DNA of 32,000 nt, from assembly GCF_008000775.2 (NCBI RefSeq), contig NZ_CP042905.2, forward strand, positions 3,750,001 through 3,782,000, written 5' to 3'. The position numbers and the translations under genes are program-made. Below the pieces are notes generated by a model. The model was not told where the DNA came from. It did not search any database and was given only the letters and a program-made list of their open reading frames with translations. The stretch's first letter is position 1; each line of letters starts with the position of its first letter. Shown here piece by piece: positions 1 through 30,826 of the stretch. The stretch comes from Promethearchaeum syntrophicum (lineage in GTDB: Archaea > Asgardarchaeota > Lokiarchaeia > Sigyniarchaeales > Promethearchaeaceae).

Positions 1-240
1 TCCTTCAGCATTTATAGCAGAAATTTGATAATAATAGATTTGACCATTAGTTAAACCTAGATCAGTATAAGTTAAAACATCTCCAACTGAAGTGAAAAAT
101 GATAAACTCCCAGAACTGGTTCCTCTATAAATATTATAGCCCGTAATAGCAGACCCACCATCACTTAAAGGTGCACCCCAAGTTAATTCTATCTGTGCAT
201 CTCCTGGAAATGTTTGAAGATTTTGAGGTGCACTCGGAAA
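1..240 (-). repeat. Partial eighth FN3-coding unit, truncated by the window edge
   Basis: Encodes FPSAPQNLQTFPGDAQIELTWGAPLSDGGSAITGYNIYRGTSSGSLSFFTSVGDVLTYTDLGLTNGQIYYYQISAINAEG, colinear with the units above. Confidence 0.9.
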
Positions 241-3200
241 GGGACTATCTGGAATCCAGCGAATATAGTCTATCCAGGCACAATCACTTCCACTAGATAC
301 ACTGCCATCTTTACTATAAGTCCATCGAATAGTATGTTCACCTTCAGATATATCTTGGGTAAATTCAGTAAAGGGAACTGTTCCTGATACAGATAAGCCA
401 CTTAAAACTCCATCAATATATAATCTTAAATAATCGTAATATTGCTCTGATGAAATTCCATACCAAAATTGAAGAGAGCCCGCTCCATTAACTGTTGTTT
501 CAATCCATGTACTTTGACTATCGACAATATCTCCACTTTCAACCGCATCTCCTCCATAATAAGTCGTCGTCGTTTGAGAAAACCAATCTGAGTCCCCTCC
601 AGTGCTGAAGGATAACTCGTAATTATCGACACCTTCATCTAACTGTTCATAAATAAGAGTAACACTCACTTCATCGCATAAGGGCCCTTCTCCTTCAGTA
701 TTATTAGCAGAAATTTGATAATAATAAATTTGTCCATTGGTTAAACCAGTATCAGTATAGGTCAAAACATTTCCAATTGAGGTGAATAATGATAAACTCC
801 CAGAACTGGTTCCTCTATAAATATTATAACCTGTAATAACAGACCCACCATCACTTAAAGGTGTACCCCAAGTTAATTCTACCTGTTCATCTCCTGGAAT
901 TGCTTGAAGATTTTGAGGTACGGTTGGAGCACCCAATGGAGTAGTACTCACTTCATCACATAATGGCCCTTCTCCTTCAGTATTATTAGCAGAAATTTGA
1001 TAATAATAAATTTGTCCATTGGTTAAACCAGTATCAGTATAGGTCAAAACATCTCCAATTGAAGTGAATAATGATAAACTCCCAGAACTGGTTCCTCTAT
1101 AAATATTATAGCCCGTAATAGCAGAGTCACCAACACTTAAAGGTGCATCCCAAGTTAATTCTACCTGTTCATCTCCTGGAATTGCTTGAAGATTTTGAGG
1201 GGCACTTGGAACACCCAATGGAGTAGCACTCACTTCATCACATAAGGGCCCTTCTCCTTCAGTATTATTAGCAGAAATTTGATAATAATAGATTTGTCCA
1301 TTGGTTAAACCAGTATCAGTATAGCTCAAAACATCTCCAATTGAAGTGAATAATGATAAACTCCCAGAACTGGTTCCTCTATAAATATTATAACCTGTAA
1401 TAACAGACCCACCATCACTTAAAGGTGCACCCCAAGTTAATTCTACCTGTTCATCTCCTGGAATTGCTTGAAGATTTTGAGGTACGGTTGGAGCACCCAA
1501 TGGAGTAGTACTCACTTCATCACATAATGGCCCTTCTCCTTCAGTATTTTTCGCAGAAATTTGATAATAATAAATTTGCCCATTGGTTAAACCAGTATCA
1601 GTATAGCTCAAAACATCTCCAATTGAAGTGAATAATGATAAACTCCCAGAACTGGTCCCTCTATAAATATTATAGCCCGTAATAGCAGAGTCACCAGCAC
1701 TTAAAGGTGCATCCCAAGTTAATTCTACCTGTTCATCTCCTGGAATTGCTTGAAGATTTTGAGGGGCACTTGGAACACCCAATGGAGTAGCACTCACTTC
1801 ATCACATAATGGCCCTTCTCCTTCAGTATTATTAGCAGAAATTTGATAATAATAAATTTGTCCATTGGTTAAACCAGTATCAGTATAGGTCAAAACATCT
1901 CCAATTGAGGTGAATAATGATAAACTCCCAGAACTGGTCCCTCTATAAATATTATAGCCCGTAATAGCAGAGTCACCAGCACTTAAAGGTGCATCCCAAG
2001 TTAATTCTACTTGTTCATCTCCTGGAATTGCTTGAAGATTTTGAGGGGCACTTGGGAGGGGACTATCTGGAATCCAGCTAATATAATCTATCCAGGCACA
2101 ATCACTTCCATCAGATACACTACCATCTTTACTATAAGTCCATCGAATAGTATGCAAACCTTCAGATATGGCTTGGGTAAATTCTGTAAAGGGAACTGTC
2201 CCTGAGATAGATAAGCCACTTAATACTCCATCTATATATAAATTTAAATAATCCCAACCGCTCTCAGATGAAACACTATACCAAAATTGAAGAGAACCTG
2301 CTCCATTAACTGCGGTTTCAATCCATGTACTTTGATCATCGTCAATATTTCCGCTTTCAACCGCATCTCCTCCATAATAAGTTGTCGTCGTTTGTGAGAA
2401 CCAATCTGCGTCCCCTCCAGTGGTGAAAGAGAGCGCATAATTATCGACTGCTTCACCCAACAGATCATAAATAGGAGTAGCACTCACTTCATTACATAAT
2501 GGTCCTTCTCCTTCAGTATTAATAGCAGAAATTTGATAATAATAGGTTTGTCCATTGGTCAGGCCAGTGTCTGTATAAATTAAAACATCTCCAACTGAAG
2601 TGAATAATGTTAAACTCCCAGAACTGGTTCCTCTATAAATATTATATGCCGTAATAGCAGACCCACCATCACTTAAAGGAGCTCCCCAAGTTAATTCTAC
2701 TTGTGCATCACCTGGAATTGTTTGAAGATTTTGAGGAGCACTTGGTAAATTACTCGGAGTAGCACTCACTTCATCACATAATGGCCCTTCTCCTTCATCA
2801 TTTATAGCAGAAATTTGATAATAATAGATCTGTTCATTCGTCAAACCAAGATCAGTATAGGTTAAAACATCTCCAACTGAAGTGAATATAGATAAACTCC
2901 CAGAACTTAAACCCCTATAGATGTTATATCCCGTAATAGCAGACCCACCATCACTTAAAGGAGCTCCCCAAGTTAATTCTACTTGTGCATCTCCTGGAAT
3001 TGCCTGAACATTTGATGGTTCAGTAATTGGAACTTCTCCAACAGTTAATTCAGCAAGTCCTTCACCAGAAATAGCTTTTACTACTAAATAATACCGCCCT
3101 GTTTCACTGGGAATAAACGTTACAGATTCATCTTGACCTATAGTACTGGAAATTCCAGAGTCATCTAAAACTGGATCTCCAGTTGTGGTTGGATCATCGT

Positions 3201-5364
3201 TGTAAATGTAAAGATCAAAATCTGCATCACCAGGAATATCTAACATTATAGCATAAGGAACACCACTAACCATATCCATATAACGTCCAAAACCATGTTT
3301 TTGAGAAGGGTTAATCAAACTGCTTGCAATTGAGACACTAACGGGGGTATCATAATCTAATTGCTGAGTATAAGCCTCTAATGCCATATCAATATTTATC
3401 CTTCCATATCCTTCATGAATATCTTTAGTTCCACGATTTAAGAGTGGTGAGGTACCAGAACTCTCTAATTCTCTAATTAGAGGGTATGTCTCGGTTGCAG
3501 TCATTAATATTAGAGATTTAACTTTTTTCGCTTGTTCTGCCGTATATACCCAATTATCACTGCCACCCATTGCTTCTATTAATAGATTGGCAGCTCCTGC
3601 CACTGCTGGACAAGACATTGAAGTACCTTGGGCACCCATAAGATCATTGGAGTAAGAATCAGTATAGATCCCGCTAACATCATTGTCATTGGTGTCTGTA
3701 GAAAACATTTGTAAAGCTAACACACTTCCTCCTGGAGCGGTGATATCAGGTTTTATGGTTGTGCCATAAAAAGAACTTCCTCCTTGACTACTATAATCGG
3801 TTGTTTCATCGTATACATTCATAGCAGCTACAGATATTACATTTTCAGCATTTCCTGGGCTCCCGACATTGTTTGCTCCTGAACCACTATTTCCTGCGGA
3901 ACAGACAACAACTATTCCCTCTTCCACGGCATTATTTACTGCATCAACCATCGTAGAGGTACTACCTCCACCCAAGCTCATCGATATCGCTGTAATATTG
4001 TAAATTTCTTTATTTGCAATAACCCAATTAACCCCATCAATAATATCTGTCGTAGGTCCACTTCCAAATCTATCAAGTGCTTTCACTCCAACTAGATGGG
4101 TATCATTTGCTACTCCACGCCAAGCATCTCCGGAACCCATTAAATCTTCAGCAAAATTCCAATGAGTTTCAAATCGACTCGCAAAATCCATATCGGTAGT
4201 ATAACCATCACTATTTCCATCTCGAAGTGAAAGGCCGATATTAATATTATATTCTCCAAGTTCATTGCTTGGAACATCATAAGTTAAAGTTGTTGTCCAT
4301 GAAGGCAAATCTACTGCATAACTGTCTTTTTCTATTCCTTGATAATAGAGGTATGCATATCCATAGACAAAGTCCGAACTAGATGTGTCATCATCAAATT
4401 GGCAATAAACATCAATTACTCCTGGTTGAGTAACATTGAACTTAATAAGTGGAATTTCAATATCTTGAACAGGTATGTCTAAGCCTGGAAGATCTAAGTT
4501 CAAACCATTAGTGGCAACCGTTCTCCCTAGTCCATCAAGAGTAGGAGTTCCCATTCCAGTTGAAATTCCTGAACAATGTGAGCCGTGACCATTATCATCA
4601 TAGGGAGCACTCTGAATATTAAGAGGTGTTTCATCTCGCCAGCCCACCACTTTTGAACTGTAATCACCATCTGTATAACCTGAATGCATTACATGAGATT
4701 CATCAATACCTGTATCTATAATCGCAAGCGCTGTTGTTTCATCTCCATCATACCCCAAGGTATTCCATACATATGGGCGAAGATTCATATTCTTACCAGT
4801 ATAATACAATTGTGAATTAACAATTACATCTTCCTCAATAAAGAAAAGCACATTCGATTGTAATAGCATTTCACGATATGCTTCGAATTGAGTTAAACTG
4901 ATACGACCTCCAAAAGCATTGAGAAAGGGTGAAAAATTACTTTTCACTACTCCCTCGTATTCTTCAAAGAAGTTTAATACTTCAATGAAATTTTTTTCAG
5001 TCGATCTGATAATCACATCAATATTTTCCTCTTTATTAATCAGATTTTGATTAGATCGAATTTCACCAAATATTTCTGAATATTTTAGTTTTTCCACAGA
5101 GATTAAATTAGTGTTATAGTTGGCTAAATTTTGTAATTTGGCATCTAAACCATCACTAATATAATTTCCATCAAGATCAATATTTTGATATTTTAATCTC
5201 CAATTATTTCCTTCATTTGAAGATTCTATATCAAATTTATTAAAAGATGGTTCAATAGCATGAGCTTCATTAGGAGTTACAGTACTTGCGAATATATTTC
5301 CACAAGCACTACAAAGAAGAAAACTCATAATGAAGAGGGCAATAAATTTCTTGTTATTTTTCAT
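1..5364 (-). CDS. Secreted multidomain subtilisin-like serine protease (peptidase S8) with propeptide, PPC-like domain, FN3-like repeats and two jelly-roll-like modules; C-terminus runs off the left window edge
   Basis: Not in the supplied ORF track because it is open at the window edge. My own minus-strand translation from ATG 5364-5362 is stop-free down to nt 1 (1788 codons). The frame was checked at both ends: MKNNKKFIALFIMSFLLCSACG... at the start and ...LGLTNGQIYYYQISAINAEG ending at nt 1. There is an N-terminal signal peptide and an I9-like propeptide (FLNAFGGRISLTQFEAY..FFIEEDVIV). S8 catalytic motifs are AIIDTGID (Asp codon 4716-4714), DDNGHGSHCSG (His 4587-4585), SAGNSG, and GTSMSCP (Ser 3621-3619). 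These are followed by a DADFDLYIY PPC-type beta domain and then repeats. Confidence 0.9.
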   Translation of the reverse strand, partial: MKNNKKFIALFIMSFLLCSACGNIFASTVTPNEAHAIEPSFNKFDIESSNEGNNWRLKYQNIDLDGNYISDGLDAKLQNLANYNTNLISVEKLKYSEIFGEIRSNQNLINKEENIDVIIRSTEKNFIEVLNFFEEYEGVVKSNFSPFLNAFGGRISLTQFEAYREMLLQSNVLFFIEEDVIVNSQLYYTGKNMNLRPYVWNTLGYDGDETTALAIIDTGIDESHVMHSGYTDGDYSSKVVGWRDETPLNIQSAPYDDNGHGSHCSGISTGMGTPTLDGLGRTVATNGLNLDLPGLDIPVQDIEIPLIKFNVTQPGVIDVYCQFDDDTSSSDFVYGYAYLYYQGIEKDSYAVDLPSWTTTLTYDVPSNELGEYNINIGLSLRDGNSDGYTTDMDFASRFETHWNFAEDLMGSGDAWRGVANDTHLVGVKALDRFGSGPTTDIIDGVNWVIANKEIYNITAISMSLGGGSTSTMVDAVNNAVEEGIVVVCSAGNSGSGANNVGSPGNAENVISVAAMNVYDETTDYSSQGGSSFYGTTIKPDITAPGGSVLALQMFSTDTNDNDVSGIYTDSYSNDLMGAQGTSMSCPAVAGAANLLIEAMGGSDNWVYTAEQAKKVKSLILMTATETYPLIRELESSGTSPLLNRGTKDIHEGYGRINIDMALEAYTQQLDYDTPVSVSIASSLINPSQKHGFGRYMDMVSGVPYAIMLDIPGDADFDLYIYNDDPTTTGDPVLDDSGISSTIGQDESVTFIPSETGRYYLVVKAISGEGLAELTVGEVPITEPSNVQAIPGDAQVELTWGAPLSDGGSAITGYNIYRGLSSGSLSIFTSVGDVLTYTDLGLTNEQIYYYQISAINDEGEGPLCDEVSATPSNLPSAPQNLQTIPGDAQVELTWGAPLSDGGSAITAYNIYRGTSSGSLTLFTSVGDVLIYTDTGLTNGQTYYYQISAINTEGEGPLCNEVSATPIYDLLGEAVDNYALSFTTGGDADWFSQTTTTYYGGDAVESGNIDDDQSTWIETAVNGAGSLQFWYSVSSESGWDYLNLYIDGVLSGLSISGTVPFTEFTQAISEGLHTIRWTYSKDGSVSDGSDCAWIDYISWIPDSPLPSAPQNLQAIPGDEQVELTWDAPLSAGDSAITGYNIYRGTSSGSLSLFTSIGDVLTYTDTGLTNGQIYYYQISANNTEGEGPLCDEVSATPLGVPSAPQNLQAIPGDEQVELTWDAPLSAGDSAITGYNIYRGTSSGSLSLFTSIGDVLSYTDTGLTNGQIYYYQISAKNTEGEGPLCDEVSTTPLGAPTVPQNLQAIPGDEQVELTWGAPLSDGGSVITGYNIYRGTSSGSLSLFTSIGDVLSYTDTGLTNGQIYYYQISANNTEGEGPLCDEVSATPLGVPSAPQNLQAIPGDEQVELTWDAPLSVGDSAITGYNIYRGTSSGSLSLFTSIGDVLTYTDTGLTNGQIYYYQISANNTEGEGPLCDEVSTTPLGAPTVPQNLQAIPGDEQVELTWGTPLSDGGSVITGYNIYRGTSSGSLSLFTSIGNVLTYTDTGLTNGQIYYYQISANNTEGEGPLCDEVSVTLIYEQLDEGVDNYELSFSTGGDSDWFSQTTTTYYGGDAVESGDIVDSQSTWIETTVNGAGSLQFWYGISSEQYYDYLRLYIDGVLSGLSVSGTVPFTEFTQDISEGEHTIRWTYSKDGSVSSGSDCAWIDYIRWIPDSPFPSAPQNLQTFPGDAQIELTWGAPLSDGGSAITGYNIYRGTSSGSLSFFTSVGDVLTYTDLGLTNGQIYYYQISAINAEG
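241..660 (-). repeat. Copy B of a ~420-bp coding module (beta-sandwich/jelly-roll-like domain)
   Basis: GGGACTATCTGGAATCCAGC at 241-260 recurs at 2059-2078, an offset of 1818 bp (606 codons), and similarity continues for ~420 bp. Encodes ..VDNYELSFSTGGDSDWFSQTTTTYYGGDAVESGDI..STWIETTVNGAGSLQFWYGISSE..YDYLRLYIDGVLSGLSVSGTVPFTEFTQDISEGEHTIRWTYSKDGSVSSGSDCAWIDYIRWIPDS. Confidence 0.85.
667..2055 (-). repeat. Five head-to-tail 282-bp (94-codon) coding tandem repeats, each one FN3-like module
   Basis: The unit marker CACTTCATC(A/G)CATAA recurs at 667, 949, 1231, 1513 and 1795, exactly 282 bp apart. Units are near-identical at the DNA level. They alternate between two subtypes (..WDAPLS(A/V)GDSAITGYN..TTPLGAPTVPQ versus ..WG(A/T)PLSDGGSVITGYN..), so 667-1230 resembles 1231-1794, a 564-bp higher-order period. 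Encoded consensus: PQNLQAIPGDEQVELTW..ITGYNIYRGTSSGSLSLFTSIGDVL.YTDTGLTNGQIYYYQISA.NTEGEGPLCDEVS. Confidence 0.95.
2059..2478 (-). repeat. Copy A of the ~420-bp coding module
   Basis: Paralogous to 241-660. Encodes ..VDNYALSFTTGGDADWFSQTTTTYYGGDAVESGNIDDDQSTWIETAVNGAGSLQFWYSVSSESGWDYLNLYIDGVLSGLSISGTVPFTEFTQAISEGLHTIRWTYSKDGSVSDGSDCAWIDYISWIPDS. The pattern (W..SSE..D.L.FYIDG...G.HT..W.Y.KD.S...G.D.AWID) resembles MAM/CUB-like jelly-roll modules of secreted proteins; that family assignment comes from memory only. Confidence 0.85.
2485..3018 (-). repeat. Two further, more diverged 282-bp FN3-coding units (N-terminal-most copies)
   Basis: The same unit marker occurs at 2485 and 2767 (282-bp spacing). 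The encoded sequence ..IPGDAQVELTWGAPLSDGGSAIT(G/A)YNIYRG.. shows more substitutions than the central array. Confidence 0.9.
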
Positions 5365-5698
5365 TTTAATTACACCAACCTAGGATGAATACACCTTTCA
5401 AATTTATGAGACAGAACATAGATATTTTGAGATATACTATCCTTATTGATTAAGTTTGATATCTAATGATTTTTCAATCACTAAAATTTCAAATCCCACA
5501 ATAAAAGTGTATATTCTTAAACAATATTTCTAGATTAAAAATTTTCACTATGTAATTCCATATGGTTACTTAACATAAGAAAAAAGATATGGAGTAAAAG
5601 AATCTCTACAGAATTTGAATAAAAGGTTTCCTGAGATGCATGATCACTCCTAATTTCTAAATTTTCTTTAGATTCAAATCATTCCATAGATTTTAATT

Positions 5699-21312: not shown

Positions 21313-22503
21313 ATGCAACTCGTTCGCCAAATTCAAATGAATCGATCTCGTCTGTTGGATGAGATTTCCTTTCGTTCCAAGAATTTGTTCAATGTTGCAA
21401 CCTATAAAATACGACAACGATTTTTTGAAGAGGGAAAATGGATTCGATATAATTAATTGTGGAAAACGCTTAAAAACCATGAAGCATACCAATCTCTTCA
21501 AAAGATGTGTGGATCACATCCCCCTCAACAGGTTCTCAAACAAGTGGATCGAAATTTTAAATCATTTTTTAAAGCGATCAAAGTCTGGAAAAAAACACCC
21601 TTCAAATTCACATCCATGCCTAAACTCCCCCATTATAAACGTAAAGATGGAAGAAATTTGGTCTACTTTACTAGTTTACAATGTTGGTTAAAAAATGGGT
21701 ATGTATTGCTGACACAAAAGATGATGAATTCAGGTTTTCCGAAAATCCCAACGGATTTACCTTGTGTGAAAGGGGTTCGCATTGTCCCCTTTGGAGATCG
21801 ATACAACATCGAATTAATCTATAATTATAACCCCCAAAACTTACACTTAAACAAATCACATATTCTGGGTATCGATTTAGGACTAGCAAACATCGTAACT
21901 GCATCAGATAACATTGGAAATGTTCCATTGATTATCAAAGGCGGTGTTGTAAAGTCAATAAATCAATTCTATAATAAAGAATTGGCTAAGTATAAATCAT
22001 TGTCTAAAAAATGTAATGATAAACACATTACTAATCGAATTTTAAAGATCCATCGTAAACGCAATAATAAAATACGCGACTTTTTTCATAAAACATCTCG
22101 TAAAATCGTAAATCATTGCATTGAAAACGATATTGGTACGATAGTTCTCGGATATAACGAAGGATGGAAACAAAACATTAACATCGGTAAAAAAAATAAT
22201 CAAAATTTTGTTTCGATTCCATTTCTAAAGCTAATTCAACAAATCGAATATAAAAGTAAGATGTTCGGTATCGATGTGGTTAGAATCACTGAAGAATTCA
22301 CATCGCAAACCTGTTCGCATTGTGGTATTGTTAAAAAATCCAATCGGAAACATCGGGGATTATATGTGTGTTCTGAATGTGGATTGGTTCTCAATGCTGA
22401 TGTGAATGCAAGTAAAAACATATTACAAAAAGGAATCCCTAAGTCCATCTGGATAGGGGATAGAGGGCGTTTGGGCCGCCCAATAGTGTTAAAAATCTTG
22501 TAA
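21313..22503 (+). pseudogene. tnpB: IS605 OrfB / IS1341-type TnpB RNA-guided endonuclease frame interrupted by one in-frame TAA (21454-21456)
   Basis: The track ORF 21457-22503 (348 aa, TTG start) continues in the same frame upstream to ATG 21313 (MQLVRQIQMNRSRLLDEISFRSKNLFNVATYKIRQRFFEEGKWIRYN-TAA-LWKTLKNHEAY...). This gives the usual ~396 codons. RuvC-type residues are intact (GIDLGLAN, IVLGYNEGW, NADVNASKNI), as is the zinc finger CSHCG...CSECG. Confidence 0.85.
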
Positions 22504-22725: not shown

Positions 22726-22797
22726 GGGGTGTTAGTCTAGTCGTATGATGGTGGCCTCCAGAGTCACTGGTCGCGGGTTCAATTCCCACACACCCCA
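22726..22797 (+). tRNA. tRNA-Trp (anticodon CCA), no encoded 3' CCA, no intron
   Basis: Hand fold of 72 nt. Acceptor stem GGGGTGT/ACACCCC has 7 perfect bp. Anticodon stem GTGGC/GTCAC has one G-U. The loop is CT-CCA-GA. The variable loop is TGGTC. The T arm is GCGGG-TTCAATT-CCCAC, and the discriminator is A. Atypical points: a C50-A64 mismatch, a weak 3-bp D stem, and a D loop (AGTCGTA) without GG. Confidence 0.75.
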
Positions 22798-26490: not shown

Positions 26491-27456
26491 CTAATCCTTT
26501 TTTCTTTTTATTTTTAGAATTATTCCAAAAGTAGCTACCGGAATTACTACAATCAATGATAAAATTGATGCACCACTAATAATGTTACCACCAGTTGCTT
26601 TATATGAATCAAGTGCAATTTTTAAAGCAGCCTCATCAACTGAAGCGCTCGCATTCATCCATTTATAATGGGTTTCATTATAATAATCAGAGAATACAGG
26701 ACTAGATTCATTAGTTCCTAATAATTTATCCAATGCAGTATTCATTCTATCTACTAGTGCAGTTGAACCTTTCTGACATGCAATCCCAAAAGCTTCAGGA
26801 CTGAATCGGTCAACGATTTCAAAATTTCCTGGATTTATGGCTTGTCCAGCCACTAATGTAGCATCATCACCTAAAACTACATCAACAGCACCAGAATCTA
26901 ATGCTTCAATTGCGAGTGTAATTGTTGCATATGTAACCATTTCCGATACATATTCTTCATCTTCTAAATACCATTGACTAGTTGTAGTGGCTTGTACCCC
27001 AACTTTAACACTAGTATCATTTACATCTCCTATTGTAGAAATATTCTTTGGATTAGCAGTTGTTACCATTACTGATTGGGTACTAAAGTAATACCATCGA
27101 GTAAAATCCATTGATTCCATTCGTTCAGATGTAATAGTGACAGCTGACATAACACAATCATAATTCCCTGCTGCTAAGCTTGTGAAAATTACATCCCATG
27201 ATACATCTCTATATTCAATCTCAATATCCATATCCTCTGCTATAAAAGCCATTATATCAGGATCAAAACCGTAAATCTCTTCGGTTGTAGTATTTTTCAT
27301 TTCAAATGGCGGATATCCTGCTTCACATGCAACTACCATCTTTCCTGCCGTAATAATATCATCAAGGCTTGTAACCTCTGCAGCTGAAGCGACAGAGATA
27401 GATGGGATTAATAATGCAAACATGAATATCCCAATAATTAATTTCTTGTTTTTCAA
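26491..27456 (-). CDS. Family-3 (polar amino acid) substrate-binding protein with N-terminal signal peptide and C-terminal TM anchor
   Basis: 321 aa. The signal peptide is MKNKKLIIGIFMFALLIPSISVASA. The SBP_bac_3-like core shows GYPPFE..GFDPDI..W..L..G.YD..MSAVTIT.ER. The C-terminal SILSLIVVIPVATFGIILKIKRKKD is a hydrophobic helix plus a basic tail. GGTGAT lies 5 nt upstream of the ATG. Confidence 0.88.
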   Translation of the reverse strand: MKNKKLIIGIFMFALLIPSISVASAAEVTSLDDIITAGKMVVACEAGYPPFEMKNTTTEEIYGFDPDIMAFIAEDMDIEIEYRDVSWDVIFTSLAAGNYDCVMSAVTITSERMESMDFTRWYYFSTQSVMVTTANPKNISTIGDVNDTSVKVGVQATTTSQWYLEDEEYVSEMVTYATITLAIEALDSGAVDVVLGDDATLVAGQAINPGNFEIVDRFSPEAFGIACQKGSTALVDRMNTALDKLLGTNESSPVFSDYYNETHYKWMNASASVDEAALKIALDSYKATGGNIISGASILSLIVVIPVATFGIILKIKRKKD

Positions 27457-27857
27457 TTTAGATCACCTTTTTATATTTAAAAAAATGCAAGTCGTTTAAT
27501 TTGCGATTAAAAGTTAGCTGAGTACAAATATAAAAGTTTGCTTCTGTTTTTTAGTTAAATTTGTTAGTATTTTAACCAAAAGTGAGCTTAAGAAAGATTT
27601 TTACTCAAAATGTAAAATTTTCACCACGTTTTTTCTGAAATGGGAAAAGAATGGGAGAAATACAAATATGGACCAATTTTATTGATAAAATTGAGGTTTT
27701 AGAACAAAATTGTATCTGCTTCAAATTATCTAAATTGGTTTACCATATGATTCTTTTTTTGAAAAAAATATCCCATTATGCATGGGGAATAAATTTTTTT
27801 TAAGCTTTGTAGCTTAATCCCAAAAACCATAAATGAAAATATAAAGCACTTTTGATG

Positions 27858-27890
27858 TATTTATAATGTAATTATAATGCAATTATAATG
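27858..27890 (+). repeat. Three tandem 11-bp direct repeats (TATTTATAATG / TAATTATAATG / CAATTATAATG)
   Basis: Read directly at 27858-27868, 27869-27879 and 27880-27890. Each unit carries a TATA-like TTATAA core, and the period is one helical turn. The repeats end 48 nt upstream of the ATG at 27938. Confidence 0.8.
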
Positions 27891-27937
27891 CACATCCTTA
27901 AATAGAAGCGAAATTTTTAATCCTTGGTTTTATAAAC

Positions 27938-28240
27938 ATGGAAATAACTACCGAAGCGAAATCATTTATAACAGAACAGTTTCAAGAAATTGAAAATCCA
28001 GTTTTGGTTGTATTTGAAAGAGTGTATCGAGGATGATGTGGGGTAGAGAGAGTTACCAGTGTAGTACCAGCGGATCTCAGCCAAATTCCTGATAAAGATC
28101 CCTTTACCCAAAAAACAATGGAGAACTTTCAATACCCACTATACCTTCAAAAAGAATTAGAACATCTATGGGGCAGCAAAACAAAAATTGATGTCGCTGG
28201 ATGGTCTGCATTTAGAAGATTAGTAATTATCCAAGGTTAA
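27938..28240 (+). CDS. HesB/IscA-like small protein with in-frame TGA (28034-28036), candidate selenocysteine
   Basis: My own translation is MEITTEAKSFITEQFQEIENPVLVVFERVYRG-[TGA]-CGVERVTSVVPADLSQIPDKDPFTQKTMENFQYPLYLQKELEHLWGSKTKIDVAGWSAFRRLVIIQG* (100 codons). It is absent from the ORF track because TGA splits it. The N-terminus and the G-[U]-C-G turn match the A-type carrier pattern (IscA ..SGCSG.., Cys35). Neither fragment is a credible gene alone. Confidence 0.6.
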
Positions 28241-28243
28241 AAT

Positions 28244-28318
28244 TTCATACGAATGAAGCAAATCTATAAACTTTGATGATTTGCAGACACCCAAAGCAAT
28301 TGGGATTGAGATTCATTT
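28244..28318 (+). promoter_or_regulatory. Structured 3' UTR: candidate SECIS-like stem-loop(s) with AUGA...GA arrangement, followed by a T6 tract
   Basis: A perfect 7-bp helix GCAAATC (28258-28264) / GATTTGC (28278-28284) closes a 13-nt loop TATAAACTTTGAT. ATGA (28253-28256) lies immediately 5' and A-GA (28285-28287) immediately 3'. A second hairpin is CCCAA (28290-28294) / TTGGG (28300-28304). AATGAA (28252-28257) can alternatively pair with TTCATT (28312-28317). T6 is at 28316-28321. Confidence 0.35.
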
Positions 28319-28334
28319 TTTAGCATATTTTTTA

Positions 28335-29204
28335 TTATAATTTTACTATTTTATCCATCGAACCGCTTGAAAACCCAGATAAATCTATTGTGACAAAGGC
28401 AAAGCCCATTTTTTTTAAATTGGAATTTACATCCTCTCTAATTCCTCTATTATTTATTAATTCAATTAACCTTGCATCCGATTCAATACGAGCGAGTAAT
28501 AAATCTGATGGTAAAAGCTTATGAATTCGAACTCTTAAAGGAACTGTGGTGTTTTTAATTAATGTTCTGAGAAAAATTTCCGCTTTATCAATTTTATTAA
28601 GCAGATCTACAGTTATTTCCGTATTATAAGGAATTCTTGATGCTAAACATGCTTGAGAAGATATATTTCGGGAGGGTAATGATAAGATTTGAGTAAGGGT
28701 AATAATATCAGATTTAGTAAATTTCCCTTCTGCTAAAGGAGATTGAACATTACTCTCTTTTAAGGCCAATAAACCAGGTCTATGAAGCCCTAGATCCGAA
28801 AAATTAGTGCCATCAATAACTAAATCATGTCCATCATGTTTTGCAATTTCGATCAATATGTCTAAAATTCTTTTTTTGCAATGATAACATCGATTTGGTA
28901 AATTCTCACGAATTTCCCTTATTTGGAGACTATTTAGAGTATATATTGTTATTGGGATATTGAGGAGTGTGGAAAATTGTTTCGCTTGATTAATTTCTTG
29001 CGTAGGAGTTAAGGGGGAGTAAATGAAAACTCCTTTCACTTCCTTGCCAAATTTTTTAGCAAAAAATAATACAAGAGTAGAATCAATTCCGCCTGAAAAT
29101 GCAACAAGAATCTTCTTTCCACTGAAAAAACTTTTTACAATTCGAATTTTTTCTTTCAGGATTTCTGGGATATCTTCTCTACTTAAAATTGTCATTACAA
29201 CCAA
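28335..29204 (-). CDS. LarE-family PP-loop ATP-dependent sulfur transferase (TIGR00268-type ATP-utilising enzyme)
   Basis: 289-aa ORF. The PP-loop is ILVAFSGGIDSTLV. NRCYHCKK, SSQACLASRIPY and RVRIH....LARIE are blocks I recognise from the LarE/TIGR00268 family. The probable true start is ATG 29195 (MTILS) rather than TTG 29204. Confidence 0.75.
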   Translation of the reverse strand: MVVMTILSREDIPEILKEKIRIVKSFFSGKKILVAFSGGIDSTLVLFFAKKFGKEVKGVFIYSPLTPTQEINQAKQFSTLLNIPITIYTLNSLQIREIRENLPNRCYHCKKRILDILIEIAKHDGHDLVIDGTNFSDLGLHRPGLLALKESNVQSPLAEGKFTKSDIITLTQILSLPSRNISSQACLASRIPYNTEITVDLLNKIDKAEIFLRTLIKNTTVPLRVRIHKLLPSDLLLARIESDARLIELINNRGIREDVNSNLKKMGFAFVTIDLSGFSSGSMDKIVKL

Positions 29205-29345
29205 CTATTCATATCGTGGGGGGTAATAATCCACAGGTTCGAAATTCTTAATTCCAGCTTCACAGATCTCACATTTATCAGGAGGGAGTTCAGTTTTTTC
29301 TTTCGATGTCCAACCACATTTTTCACAACGCCATAAACATTTCAT
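29205..29345 (-). CDS. Zinc-ribbon (rubredoxin-like) microprotein, 46 aa
   Basis: My own translation is MKCLWRCEKCGWTSKEKTELPPDKCEICEAGIKNFEPVDYYPPRYE*. It has two CxxC knuckles 14 residues apart. The stop (29205-29207) abuts the start region of the LarE-family gene. It is below the ORF-track length cutoff. Confidence 0.5.
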   Translation of the reverse strand: MKCLWRCEKCGWTSKEKTELPPDKCEICEAGIKNFEPVDYYPPRYE

Positions 29346-29450: not shown

Positions 29451-30002
29451 TTAACTTCCGTTTAATAATACCTCTAAATCTTTTGTATTCAATGGACCAT
29501 CACCGCAAAAATAACCACAGCCAGAATCTTGATATTTTTCAATTTCAAAACTTAAAGGAACGACGTATTTTCTTAAAGAATCAATAATATAATTAACATG
29601 GATATCAACGATTGCCTTATCCTTTCTTAAGCACGAATCAATAAATTTTTCAATTGTAGTAACATTTGGAGCAATAATTTCTATTAACATGTTGAATTTC
29701 CCTGTAATTTTGAAACAATTTACAATATATGGACATTTTCTAAATTTCGTCCAAAGTGCTTCAACATTTTTTACGGATAAATCTATTCGGGCCAATTTTA
29801 TATCCAATTTATTAAATTCTGCTCCAATCACTTCAGATAAAAGAAATTTTCGTTTCAATTTTATTATTCGTGCTCCCACTGCGGGTTGACTTTTATTAAC
29901 TTTTTCAGAAATTGCAGAATGGGTCATTTCGGGGTTTTTTTCTAATAATTCTATAATCTTTTTATCTGTATCATCAATTTCGAGTATCTCATTGTATTTC
30001 AT
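29451..30002 (-). CDS. Lrp/AsnC-family transcriptional regulator with C-terminal Cys-containing extension (paralog 1)
   Basis: 183 aa. The N-terminal wHTH is IDDTDKKIIELLEKNPEMTHSAISEKVNKSQPAVGARIIKLKRKFLL, followed by a RAM-like alpha/beta domain (CPYIVNCFKITGKFNMLIEI) and a tail ..QDSGCGYFCGDG. Confidence 0.8.
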   Translation of the reverse strand: MKYNEILEIDDTDKKIIELLEKNPEMTHSAISEKVNKSQPAVGARIIKLKRKFLLSEVIGAEFNKLDIKLARIDLSVKNVEALWTKFRKCPYIVNCFKITGKFNMLIEIIAPNVTTIEKFIDSCLRKDKAIVDIHVNYIIDSLRKYVVPLSFEIEKYQDSGCGYFCGDGPLNTKDLEVLLNGS

Positions 30003-30262: not shown

Positions 30263-30826
30263 TTAACTGATAGATTTTATTTTAATTTTTTTCGCATCAG
30301 CTTTTTCGCAATAGGGGCAAGATACAATTCCACATAATTCATCAGGACTATCAAAATTCTCTATTGTAAAATCAACCGGAAGTATAAATGGCTCAGCAAA
30401 ATCTGTGATTAAATCCATTTTAATTTTTTTAACGAATTCTTTATTTCTAAAATGCTTATCTAAAATAATATCTAATCTTTTAAGGGATGAACAAGCCATG
30501 AAAATCATCACATTATAATCCCCACTTAATTTTAGGGCATTAATTATGTATGGACAAGAATCAACCATGTCAAATACGAATTGAGGTTGTGTTATTGACA
30601 ATTCTATTTTGACTAAATTGAGCGAGGATGATACAAGATCTTTGGAAAAATCAACTCCAATCTGAGTAGCTAGAACCCCTTTTTCAGATAATTTTTTTAT
30701 TCGAGCTCCAATTGCTGGTTGAGATCTTTCCAAGTTTTTTGCTATTTGGCTATGGGTAATAGATGGATTCTTTTGAAGAGTTTCGATTATTCTTTTATCT
30801 ATATCATCAAGTTTTGTTAATTTCAT
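30263..30826 (-). CDS. Lrp/AsnC-family transcriptional regulator with C-terminal Cys-containing extension (paralog 2)
   Basis: 187 aa. It is colinear with paralog 1: LDDIDKRIIETLQKNPSITHSQIAKNLERSQPAIGARIKKLSEKGVL, then CPYIINALKLSGDYNVMIFM, with a tail ..ELCGIVSCPYCEK. Confidence 0.8.
   Translation of the reverse strand: MKLTKLDDIDKRIIETLQKNPSITHSQIAKNLERSQPAIGARIKKLSEKGVLATQIGVDFSKDLVSSSLNLVKIELSITQPQFVFDMVDSCPYIINALKLSGDYNVMIFMACSSLKRLDIILDKHFRNKEFVKKIKMDLITDFAEPFILPVDFTIENFDSPDELCGIVSCPYCEKADAKKIKIKSIS

Follow-up and report, generated by a model that had tools for sequence, protein, structure and literature searches.

A probable selenocysteine-decoded gene with a SECIS-like 3' element in Promethearchaeum syntrophicum

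The gene and its in-frame TGA

The locus described here lies within a 32,000-nucleotide stretch of the Promethearchaeum syntrophicum genome (contig NZ_CP042905.2, positions 3,750,001 to 3,782,000), referred to throughout as the window, which has a GC content of 33% and whose genes include hutUHI, FTHFS, an [FeFe] hydrogenase and TnpB, both in keeping with a Promethearchaeum-like organism. Between an SBP gene (26491-27456, - strand) and a LarE-family gene (28335-29204, - strand) is a gap of 878 bp, put at 880 bp in a preliminary description of this DNA, and within it an open reading frame (ORF) of 100 codons appears on the + strand if an in-frame TGA is decoded. Taken together, the sequence comparisons below indicate that 27938-28240 is very probably a genuine selenocysteine (Sec)-decoded gene with a selenocysteine insertion sequence (SECIS) in its 3' untranslated region (UTR). 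Gene callers that apply genetic code 11 would miss this gene, which is taken here to be expressed. Its coding parts are:

27938-28033, + strand: codons 1-32 (MEITTEAKSFITEQFQEIENPVLVVFERVYRG), corresponding to strand 1, helix 1 and strand 2 of the HesB/IscA fold in the model
28034-28036, + strand: in-frame TGA, the proposed selenocysteine codon (Sec33); TGA in 18 of 18 Sec-form loci
28037-28240, + strand: codons 34-100 with the TAA stop (28238-28240), beginning Cys34-Gly35, in the same frame as codons 1-32

The frame opens at ATG 27938 and reaches the TGA after 32 codons, beyond which 67 further codons follow before the TAA. The conceptual product has 100 residues, MEITTEAKSF...VFERVYRG-U-CGVERV...RRLVIIQG, in which the sole cysteine is the residue directly after the TGA. 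Frame and product are exactly as given in the preliminary description, which had also held that neither half is a credible gene on its own; the upstream ORF by itself comes to 32 residues, and the first downstream ATG, at 28118, opens an ORF of 40 residues.

A word-indexed homolog search, with U replaced by C in the query, returned four proteins of 100-104 residues, 83-89% identical and all with tryptophan at the TGA column. Code-11 translation of their contigs does not give the listed proteins and the DNA shows TGA in all four, so that a genuine tryptophan at this column is rejected; the tryptophan in the database entries arose because metagenomic gene callers applied code 4 to TGA on contigs that are short and AT-rich. 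In the five orthologs (the window and these four) the TGA never varies, and the next codon is TGT or TGC. The variable sites at first, second and third codon positions number 8, 3 and 20 over codons 2-32 and 10, 7 and 36 over codons 34-100. Because third-position variation dominates both before and after the TGA, the alignment argues for one continuous frame under purifying selection on either side of it. The same observation bears on the proposal that the region holds two independent small ORFs, of 32 and 40 residues, or no coding gene, to which we attach almost no probability. A mechanical ORF listing does yield only those two pieces, yet codons 34-60, for which there would be no start codon, are conserved at the protein level with third-position variation, and the full-length protein is modelled as one confident domain that matches the family NF041239, considered below, from end to end.

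The distribution of the TGA extends well beyond close orthologs. Only 22 relatives emerged when 1.84 billion representatives were searched exhaustively with a profile, and those of full length show WC or CC at the motif. The fragments among them are broken near residue 32, P0020 ending at that residue and P0007, P0011 and P0012 beginning shortly after the TGA, as expected of code-11 callers, which stop at an in-frame TGA. In the DNA itself TGA was read at 18 loci from independent assemblies (ENA, JGI, Logan and NCBI metagenome-assembled genomes, MAGs) that span about 23-91% protein identity. These take in six genomic loci (L007-L012) and five JGI metagenome loci (L013-L017), all with TGA, a lineage of about 40% identity (L005, GGA TGA TGC), and the most distant branch (L026, about 23% identical, TCA TGA TGT GGC CCA), whose contig also carries an archaeal histone gene. 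Cysteine forms are seen in the DNA of L006 (TGC TGT), whose close ortholog L017 bears TGA, and of L027 (TGT TGT), and at the protein level in P0013, which has CC at the dyad. The only invariant columns in the alignment of 17 family members are Ala7 and the [U/C]-C-G motif, and the Sec column holds no residue other than Sec (TGA) or Cys. The check on this column that the preliminary description proposed thus finds TGA or Cys in every case, never termination or another residue, and its candidate selenoprotein gains support from the conserved TGA, the Cys homologs and the selection downstream.

The possibilities that the gene is a pseudogene, or that errors of sequencing or assembly turned TGT, TGC or TGG into TGA, draw on the facts that TGA lies one base from each of these codons and that the gene is missing from the ORF track. 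Both are excluded with near certainty because TGA recurs in 18 loci from unrelated assemblies and because the codons downstream of it are under purifying selection (10/7/36).

In a scan of a genome collection, close orthologs (86-91% identity) turned up in three MAGs of Promethearchaeum sp. (JAUWPK, JAUWMK and JAUWOE) and in one uncultured archaeon. Those Promethearchaeum MAGs also contain a second paralog (34-36% identity), making two paralogs per genome; below, paralog A denotes the window type and paralog B the second type. The distant branch made up of P0013, P0016, P0019 and P0024 has the motif S-U/C-C-G-P ... GFGPFRRL, and these four proteins bear a precomputed Pfam tag, PF28096.

Tryptophan at the Sec position in full-length proteins from short contigs is found in P0001-P0006, P0008, P0016-P0019 and P0024, and likewise in the PrxL matches P0029-P0081. 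On long contigs Loki selenoproteins are represented by N- or C-terminal fragments, and the known Loki selenoprotein PrxL has the same database signature. The pattern is a systematic artefact, the tryptophan being due to code-4 gene calling.

UGA is otherwise a stop codon in this DNA. Of the window's 25 long ORFs, 16 end in TAA, 5 in TAG and 4 in TGA; there is no in-frame TGA in their 7358 codons, and they match families end to end. The tRNA-Trp (22726-22797, + strand) has the anticodon CCA. This organism does not use UGA as a general sense codon, and genome-wide UGA reassignment is ruled out by the stop-codon usage of the window.

A SECIS-like element in the 3' UTR

The strongest evidence for a selenoprotein is a conserved SECIS in the 3' UTR, a feature absent from the preliminary description. 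In the five-way DNA alignment the 3' UTR is conserved to the same degree as the coding sequence, and the following parts can be distinguished:

28241-28247, + strand: 5' strand of helix I (AAUUUCA), paired with 28307-28313 by RNAalifold
28253-28256, + strand: core AUGA, 5' half of a putative kink-turn quartet; the UGA is invariant and the first A near-invariant
28257-28265 and 28277-28285 (arms) with 28266-28276 (loop), + strand: helix II and its loop AUAAACUUUGA, with 7 Watson-Crick pairs between A.A and U.U
28286-28287, + strand: core GA, 3' half of the quartet, invariant across elements
28290-28304, + strand: small second hairpin (CCCAA/UUGGG; RNAalifold) within the 3' side of the internal loop
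28307-28313, + strand: 3' strand of helix I (UGAGAUU; RNAalifold)
28316-28321, + strand: oligo-T run (TTTTTT) right after the structure, conserved in all orthologs

The core begins 12 nt past the stop codon and 219 nt past the UGA. Published lokiSECIS elements lie close to the stop codon and consist of AUGA, a 9-bp stem, an 11-nt apical loop and GA (or AA) after the stem (Mariotti et al. 2016, PMC4989117); the first five loop nucleotides are A-rich and the last is G, usually after A (PMC4989117), and an AUGA_GA core is present in most Asgard selenoprotein genes (Huang et al. 2024, PMC11227280). The methanogen SECIS, by comparison, is of the type GAA_A and not AUGA_GA (PMC11227280). The window element shares with the lokiSECIS, or Asgard eSECIS-like type I, its place in the 3' UTR near the stop, the AUGA, a stem of nine stacked positions, an 11-nt loop that is A-rich on its 5' side (A in four of the first five positions) and the GA. 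It differs in the extra hairpin within the 3' internal loop, in the ends of the stem and in the end of the loop, the last two of which are weighed below.

What ties these features together is covariation. Helix I shows one compensatory and one wobble change among the five orthologs (RNAalifold), and the outer helix recurs with unrelated sequence at L010 (CCAAUCGU/ACGAUUGG) and in paralog B (UUCCC/GGGAA); L010 also has a second hairpin of different sequence (AAACUC/GAGUUU). The stems of helix II are unlike between lineages, reading AGCAAAUCU/UGAUUUGCA in the window, UCUUCAUCU/GGAUGGAGG at L005, AGGUUUUCA/UGGAAACUG at L010 and AGCAAGUUU/AAAUUUGCU in paralog B. There are 11 distinct helix II stems among 15 loci and 2-4 pair types at each position, and stem positions 2-8 are nevertheless paired in 105 of 105 cells, a count that falls to 22-54 of 105 with the 3' arm shifted by 1-3 nt. 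A motif scan of both strands (ATGA-N9-N10/11-N9-GA, in which positions 2-8 must pair, with the expectation taken from shuffled windows) gave one hit in the 32-kb window, at 28253, against 0.05 per shuffled window. Each homolog locus, up to 19 kb long, likewise gave one hit, always just 3' of the gene.

The AUGA...GA arrangement is present at every Sec-form locus, with AUGA before and GA after the stem in the window and 16 other Sec-form loci and with UUGA in place of AUGA at L017 and, among the Cys forms, at L006. Paralog B has all the features of the published lokiSECIS, for instance at L016, AUGA-AGCAAAUUU-AAAAACUAAAG-AAAUUUGCA-GA; its loop begins AAAAAC..., and the loops of L005 and L010 are 10 nt long. 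The last loop nucleotide is G in paralog B (..AAG/..AGG) and at L005 and L010 (..G). The regular expression missed the element of L026, which by eye consists of AUGA, a 9-bp stem, a loop containing a 3-bp mini-stem, and a GA displaced outward by one nucleotide. At L027, the true Cys form, there is only a plain terminator hairpin with a U-run, and no AUGA/GA element.

Two further observations concern variants of this arrangement. The UUGA core occurs in otherwise canonical 9-bp/11-nt elements at L017 1070-1104, beside a TGA gene, and at L006 433-467, beside a TGC gene, and is listed in neither PMC4989117 nor PMC11227280. A reading of the L006 UUGA as a decaying SECIS was withdrawn, for the Sec-form L017 carries the identical element; UUGA is either a tolerated core variant, or L006 and L017 are both in transition. 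The Sec forms of paralog B also have TGA as their true stop codon (L011 7463-7465; L012 2788-2790), 3-7 nt upstream of the AUGA, so that the mRNAs of L011 and L012 would carry one UGA read as Sec and another read as stop.

From these elements a mechanism can be proposed in which UGA 28034-28036 would be recoded to selenocysteine by machinery of the archaeal/eukaryal type, Sec-tRNASec together with EFSec/aSelB, under the direction of the eukaryote-like lokiSECIS in the 3' UTR. The oligo-T run that follows it at 28316-28321 is likely the archaeal transcription terminator; transcription in archaea terminates at oligo-T, and oligo-T alone suffices.

Several results weigh against Sec decoding of the window gene. 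Helix II of the window ends in terminal A.A and U.U mismatches, leaving 7 canonical pairs where other lineages have 8-9, and the loop ends ...UGA, with GA instead of the canonical AG, such that its last nucleotide is not G. Rfam, at gathering and at permissive thresholds, finds no SECIS match in the window, although the Rfam SECIS models likewise give no match for any Loki SECIS (Mariotti et al., PMC4989117). A covariance model, R1, built from 13 elements recovers its training set only and misses the covaried held-out elements of L005, L010 and L015 even with filters off; it is too sequence-specific and is uninformative on the PrxL loci. The PrxL loci that were fetched, which are of the INUPFC subtype, have a differently organised 3' UTR. 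Finally, tRNASec, EFSec, PSTK, SepSecS and SelD are all absent from the window and from L007-L012, although complete Sec machinery is known from Lokiarchaeum (PMC4989117) and most Lokiarchaeia use Sec (PMC11227280).

The lack of Sec machinery in the window and the fetched loci and the silence of Rfam would also suit an explanation in which the UGA is read through without selenocysteine, by near-cognate insertion of Trp, Cys or Arg or by a local suppressor, and the 3' structure is a terminator, a stability element or a regulatory element; the oligo-T run right after the structure and the clean Trp protein produced by code-4 callers point the same way. Such read-through would, however, explain neither the covarying AUGA/GA hairpin nor the presence of Cys, and not Trp, as the sole alternative residue. 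In its AUGA/GA core, 9/11/9 geometry and A-rich loop the structure agrees with the published lokiSECIS, and covariation maintains it, whereas archaeal termination requires oligo-T only; the true Cys form L027 is without the element; and UGA is a normal stop in the neighbouring genes, with a tRNA-Trp anticodon of CCA. We therefore give read-through without Sec a very small probability, and Sec decoding remains the favoured account.

The PrxL INUPFC 3' UTRs (L018-L025) are of interest in their own right. They share a conserved three-way layout in which five pairs covary and which is made of an outer stem (GAUUUGG/CCAAAUC), a hairpin of 11 bp and another hairpin around UAGCCAC. AUGA is found in the A-rich loop of the 11-bp hairpin; the stem is neither preceded by AUGA nor followed by GA. 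The layout may be a kind of SECIS outside the published descriptions.

Family membership and fold

The sole NCBIfam match of the window protein is NF041239, 'CC/Se motif family (seleno)protein', a family that the preliminary description had named. The match is of full length, residues 2-97 aligning to positions 4-88 of the 91 in the profile, and its score, with U as C, is 29.7 bits against a curated cutoff of 40, so that by sequence the protein is a sub-threshold relative. The family is nonetheless matched by 16 of the 17 members, with a best E-value of 3.8e-9 and all scores below the cutoff. Substitution by alanine costs 5.4 bits at the first dyad residue, 3.5 at the second and 3.2 at the glycine, and cysteine placed at neighbouring positions changes the score by less than 1 bit. 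Because point mutants of these residues cost the most bits, the U-C-G of the window is placed on the conserved C-C-G columns of NF041239.

NF041239, also named Moor_selen_rel, was predicted in Moorella thermoacetica. Its members share with the window protein a length of about 90-100 residues, a conserved U/C-C-G motif and the existence of both Sec and Cys forms. The members described here are archaeal with a eukaryote-like SECIS in the 3' UTR, whereas the bacterial SECIS is intragenic. A 2026 review gives the motif as CxxU and does not flag the family as archaeal (PMC13188914). A search of named proteins with the family profile found no annotated relatives and no bacterial NF041239 member. On the profile evidence the window family appears to be a divergent archaeal branch of NF041239, which has so far been bacterial, and not a new kind of system.

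The preliminary description also placed the protein among HesB/IscA-like proteins, and here fold and sequence part company. At the level of sequence, Pfam PF01521 (Fe-S_biosyn) gives no match for the window protein at E<=10 and faint matches in 4 of the 17 members (best E 0.021), alignment by hhalign of the family with E. coli IscA is not significant, and a sequence-profile search of the PDB gave noise only. The structural evidence comes from an AlphaFold model of a natural Cys-form paralog, P0010, built with the family alignment (pLDDT 91.8, pTM 0.82), in which the dyad sits at the turn between two long strands, strand 2 and strand 3. The top ten PDB matches of this model in Foldseek all have the IscA/SufA/HesB fold, with probability 1.00 and TM-scores of 0.53-0.65 (including 1r94, 1s98, 2d2a, 1x0g, 2apn and 1nwb). 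The window protein is accordingly modelled as a single-domain IscA/HesB fold, in which Sec33 and Cys34, its only Cys-type residues, would form a dyad at the tip of the strand 2-strand 3 hairpin. By matching topology only, with Foldseek alignments that cover nearly the full length, Sec33 may be equivalent to Cys35 of IscA.

Within this fold class, IscA, SufA and ErpA (PF01521) resemble the window protein in overall fold, in the N-terminal I-T-x-x-A start of the helix and in a Cys-type residue at the strand 2-strand 3 turn. They differ in having three ligand cysteines, C-x(n)-C-x-C, with a single Cys at the turn where the window protein has a vicinal U-C. The absence of the C-terminal CxC pair, pointed out in the preliminary description, is borne out: the window protein has Cys only in the dyad, and no C-terminal Cys is conserved across the family. 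The description's appeal to the established HesB-like selenoprotein family does not hold, as TIGR01911 gives no match at E<=1 for any of the 17 members and the window protein is not one of its members. TIGR01911 is similar in being a small selenoprotein of HesB/IscA fold that includes archaea (PMC13188914, PMC9499178). It is known from methanogens and bacteria with the motif UxGP, which fits the U-C-G-P of the distant branch, whereas the window reads U-C-G-V; its Sec probably occupies the same hairpin position as Sec33.

The vicinal pair also has a parallel in an unrelated protein. The C-terminus of mammalian thioredoxin reductase carries a Gly-Cys-Sec-Gly redox centre in which the vicinal pair forms a selenenylsulfide. 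The likeness is in the vicinal Cys and Sec between glycines, here in the reversed order Gly-Sec-Cys-Gly; the reductase motif is on the flexible C-terminal tail of a flavoenzyme, in contrast to an internal beta-hairpin here, and there is no homology.

Surroundings, function and meaning

Upstream of the gene a single feature stands out:

27890-27908, + strand: conserved block GCACAxCCTTAAATAGAAG with a TATA-like box at 27897-27904 (TTTAAATA in orthologs), located some 35 nt before the start codon

No other upstream stretch is strongly conserved in the five-way DNA alignment, and the block is also present in L007-L009. By its consensus it is a putative archaeal TATA/BRE promoter. Directly upstream, an 11-nt tandem repeat of AATGCAATTAT occupies 27832-27892 (5.5 copies, 74% matches), with apparently fewer copies in the orthologs.

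All nine loci of paralog A that are long enough, the 52%-identical L010/L015 among them, have a LarE-family gene in convergent orientation. The LarE-family protein of the window has CxxC and CLASR cysteines, which we take to be typical of [4Fe-4S]-type LarE. The adjacency is weak evidence because the region is broadly syntenic, a tRNA-Trp about 5 kb upstream being conserved in L008-L010 as well. Paralog B is found head-to-head with a WCGPC thioredoxin at three of three loci, and in the separate L005 lineage a thioredoxin gene lies upstream.

Other features of the window can be recorded beside these. Abutting the LarE start on the same strand is an ORF of 46 residues with CxxC...CxxC (29205-29345, - strand), which scores 22.4 bits with a rubredoxin-like Pfam model whose cutoff is 26.5. 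Beyond it are tandem Lrp/AsnC-like regulators (29451-30002 and 30263-30826, both - strand) with Cys-rich C-terminal extensions, GCGYFCGDG and CGIVSCPYC. A gene for a TnpB-family RNA-guided endonuclease (21457-22503, + strand) lies about 220 bp upstream of the tRNA-Trp(CCA). At the left end of the window an ORF of >1793 residues (1-5379, - strand) runs off the edge; it has a signal-peptide-like N-terminus, a subtilase domain (Peptidase_S8) and eight fibronectin type III repeats, and is probably a secreted or surface protease.

As to function, the basis is fold and gene neighbourhood only, and the LarE gene is convergent with paralog A and not co-transcribed with it. Our tentative suggestion, held at somewhat less than even confidence, is that the dyad cycles between selenol/thiol and selenenylsulfide, or holds a chalcogen or metal, in a small redox or chalcogen-transfer protein serviced by thioredoxin. 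The main alternative for a true selenoprotein would be the role of an Fe-S or soft-metal carrier, a homodimer with two Sec-Cys dyads. The IscA/SufA fold, a dyad placed by topology where IscA has its first ligand Cys, the faint contact of 4 of the 17 members with Fe-S_biosyn, the constant adjacency of paralog A to a LarE-family gene with CxxC and CLASR cysteines, and the rubredoxin-like ORF abutting LarE would all fit such a carrier, which we nonetheless judge unlikely, at perhaps one chance in a few. The protein lacks the C-terminal CxC ligands by which A-type carriers are defined, and its gene has no isc, suf or nif gene beside it; two other lineages of the family have thioredoxin as their conserved neighbour, and LarE is convergent in a region that is broadly syntenic anyway.

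The place of this protein among known selenoproteins can be set against two surveys. A 2026 inventory lists 11 archaeal selenoprotein families (PMC13188914), of which eight occur in Asgard archaea (PMC13188914; PMC11227280), and seven families were found in >400 Asgard genomes by homology to known families (Huang et al., PMC11227280). The present family is missing from the published lists for archaea. The supplements of Huang et al. contain neither Promethearchaeum, nor these MAGs, nor this protein, and full-text literature searches gave no report of this selenoprotein family. A bolder proposal, that this is a further archaeal family (the twelfth, and the eighth in Asgard archaea) whose dyad acts as a dedicated chalcogen relay, passing persulfide or perselenide to enzymes of sulfur insertion, the adjacent LarE among them, seems to us distinctly improbable. 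If the relay were true, selenium would be tied to the making of the nickel-pincer cofactor or of thio-cofactors in the lineage most closely related to eukaryotes. On the same improbable reading, the UUGA-core and three-way-junction SECIS variants seen here and in PrxL would mean that the diversity of Asgard SECIS, and with it the Asgard selenoproteome, has been underestimated.

Returning to the selenoprotein itself, the gene represents a well-supported additional archaeal selenoprotein family within the genus-level lineage to which the only long-cultured Asgard archaeon belongs, and its Gly-Sec-Cys-Gly dyad on an IscA scaffold would be an unusual active-site design. With it come some 15 eukaryote-like SECIS sequences that are new and covary naturally, a UUGA core and a second, embedded hairpin being represented among them; these sequences bear on how SECIS elements are recognised in Asgard archaea. 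To our knowledge, these archaea are without SBP2. More generally, small divergent selenoproteins escape both homology-based selenoproteome surveys and standard annotation, and code-4 'Trp' translations on short metagenomic contigs offer a usable fingerprint for those that are unannotated.

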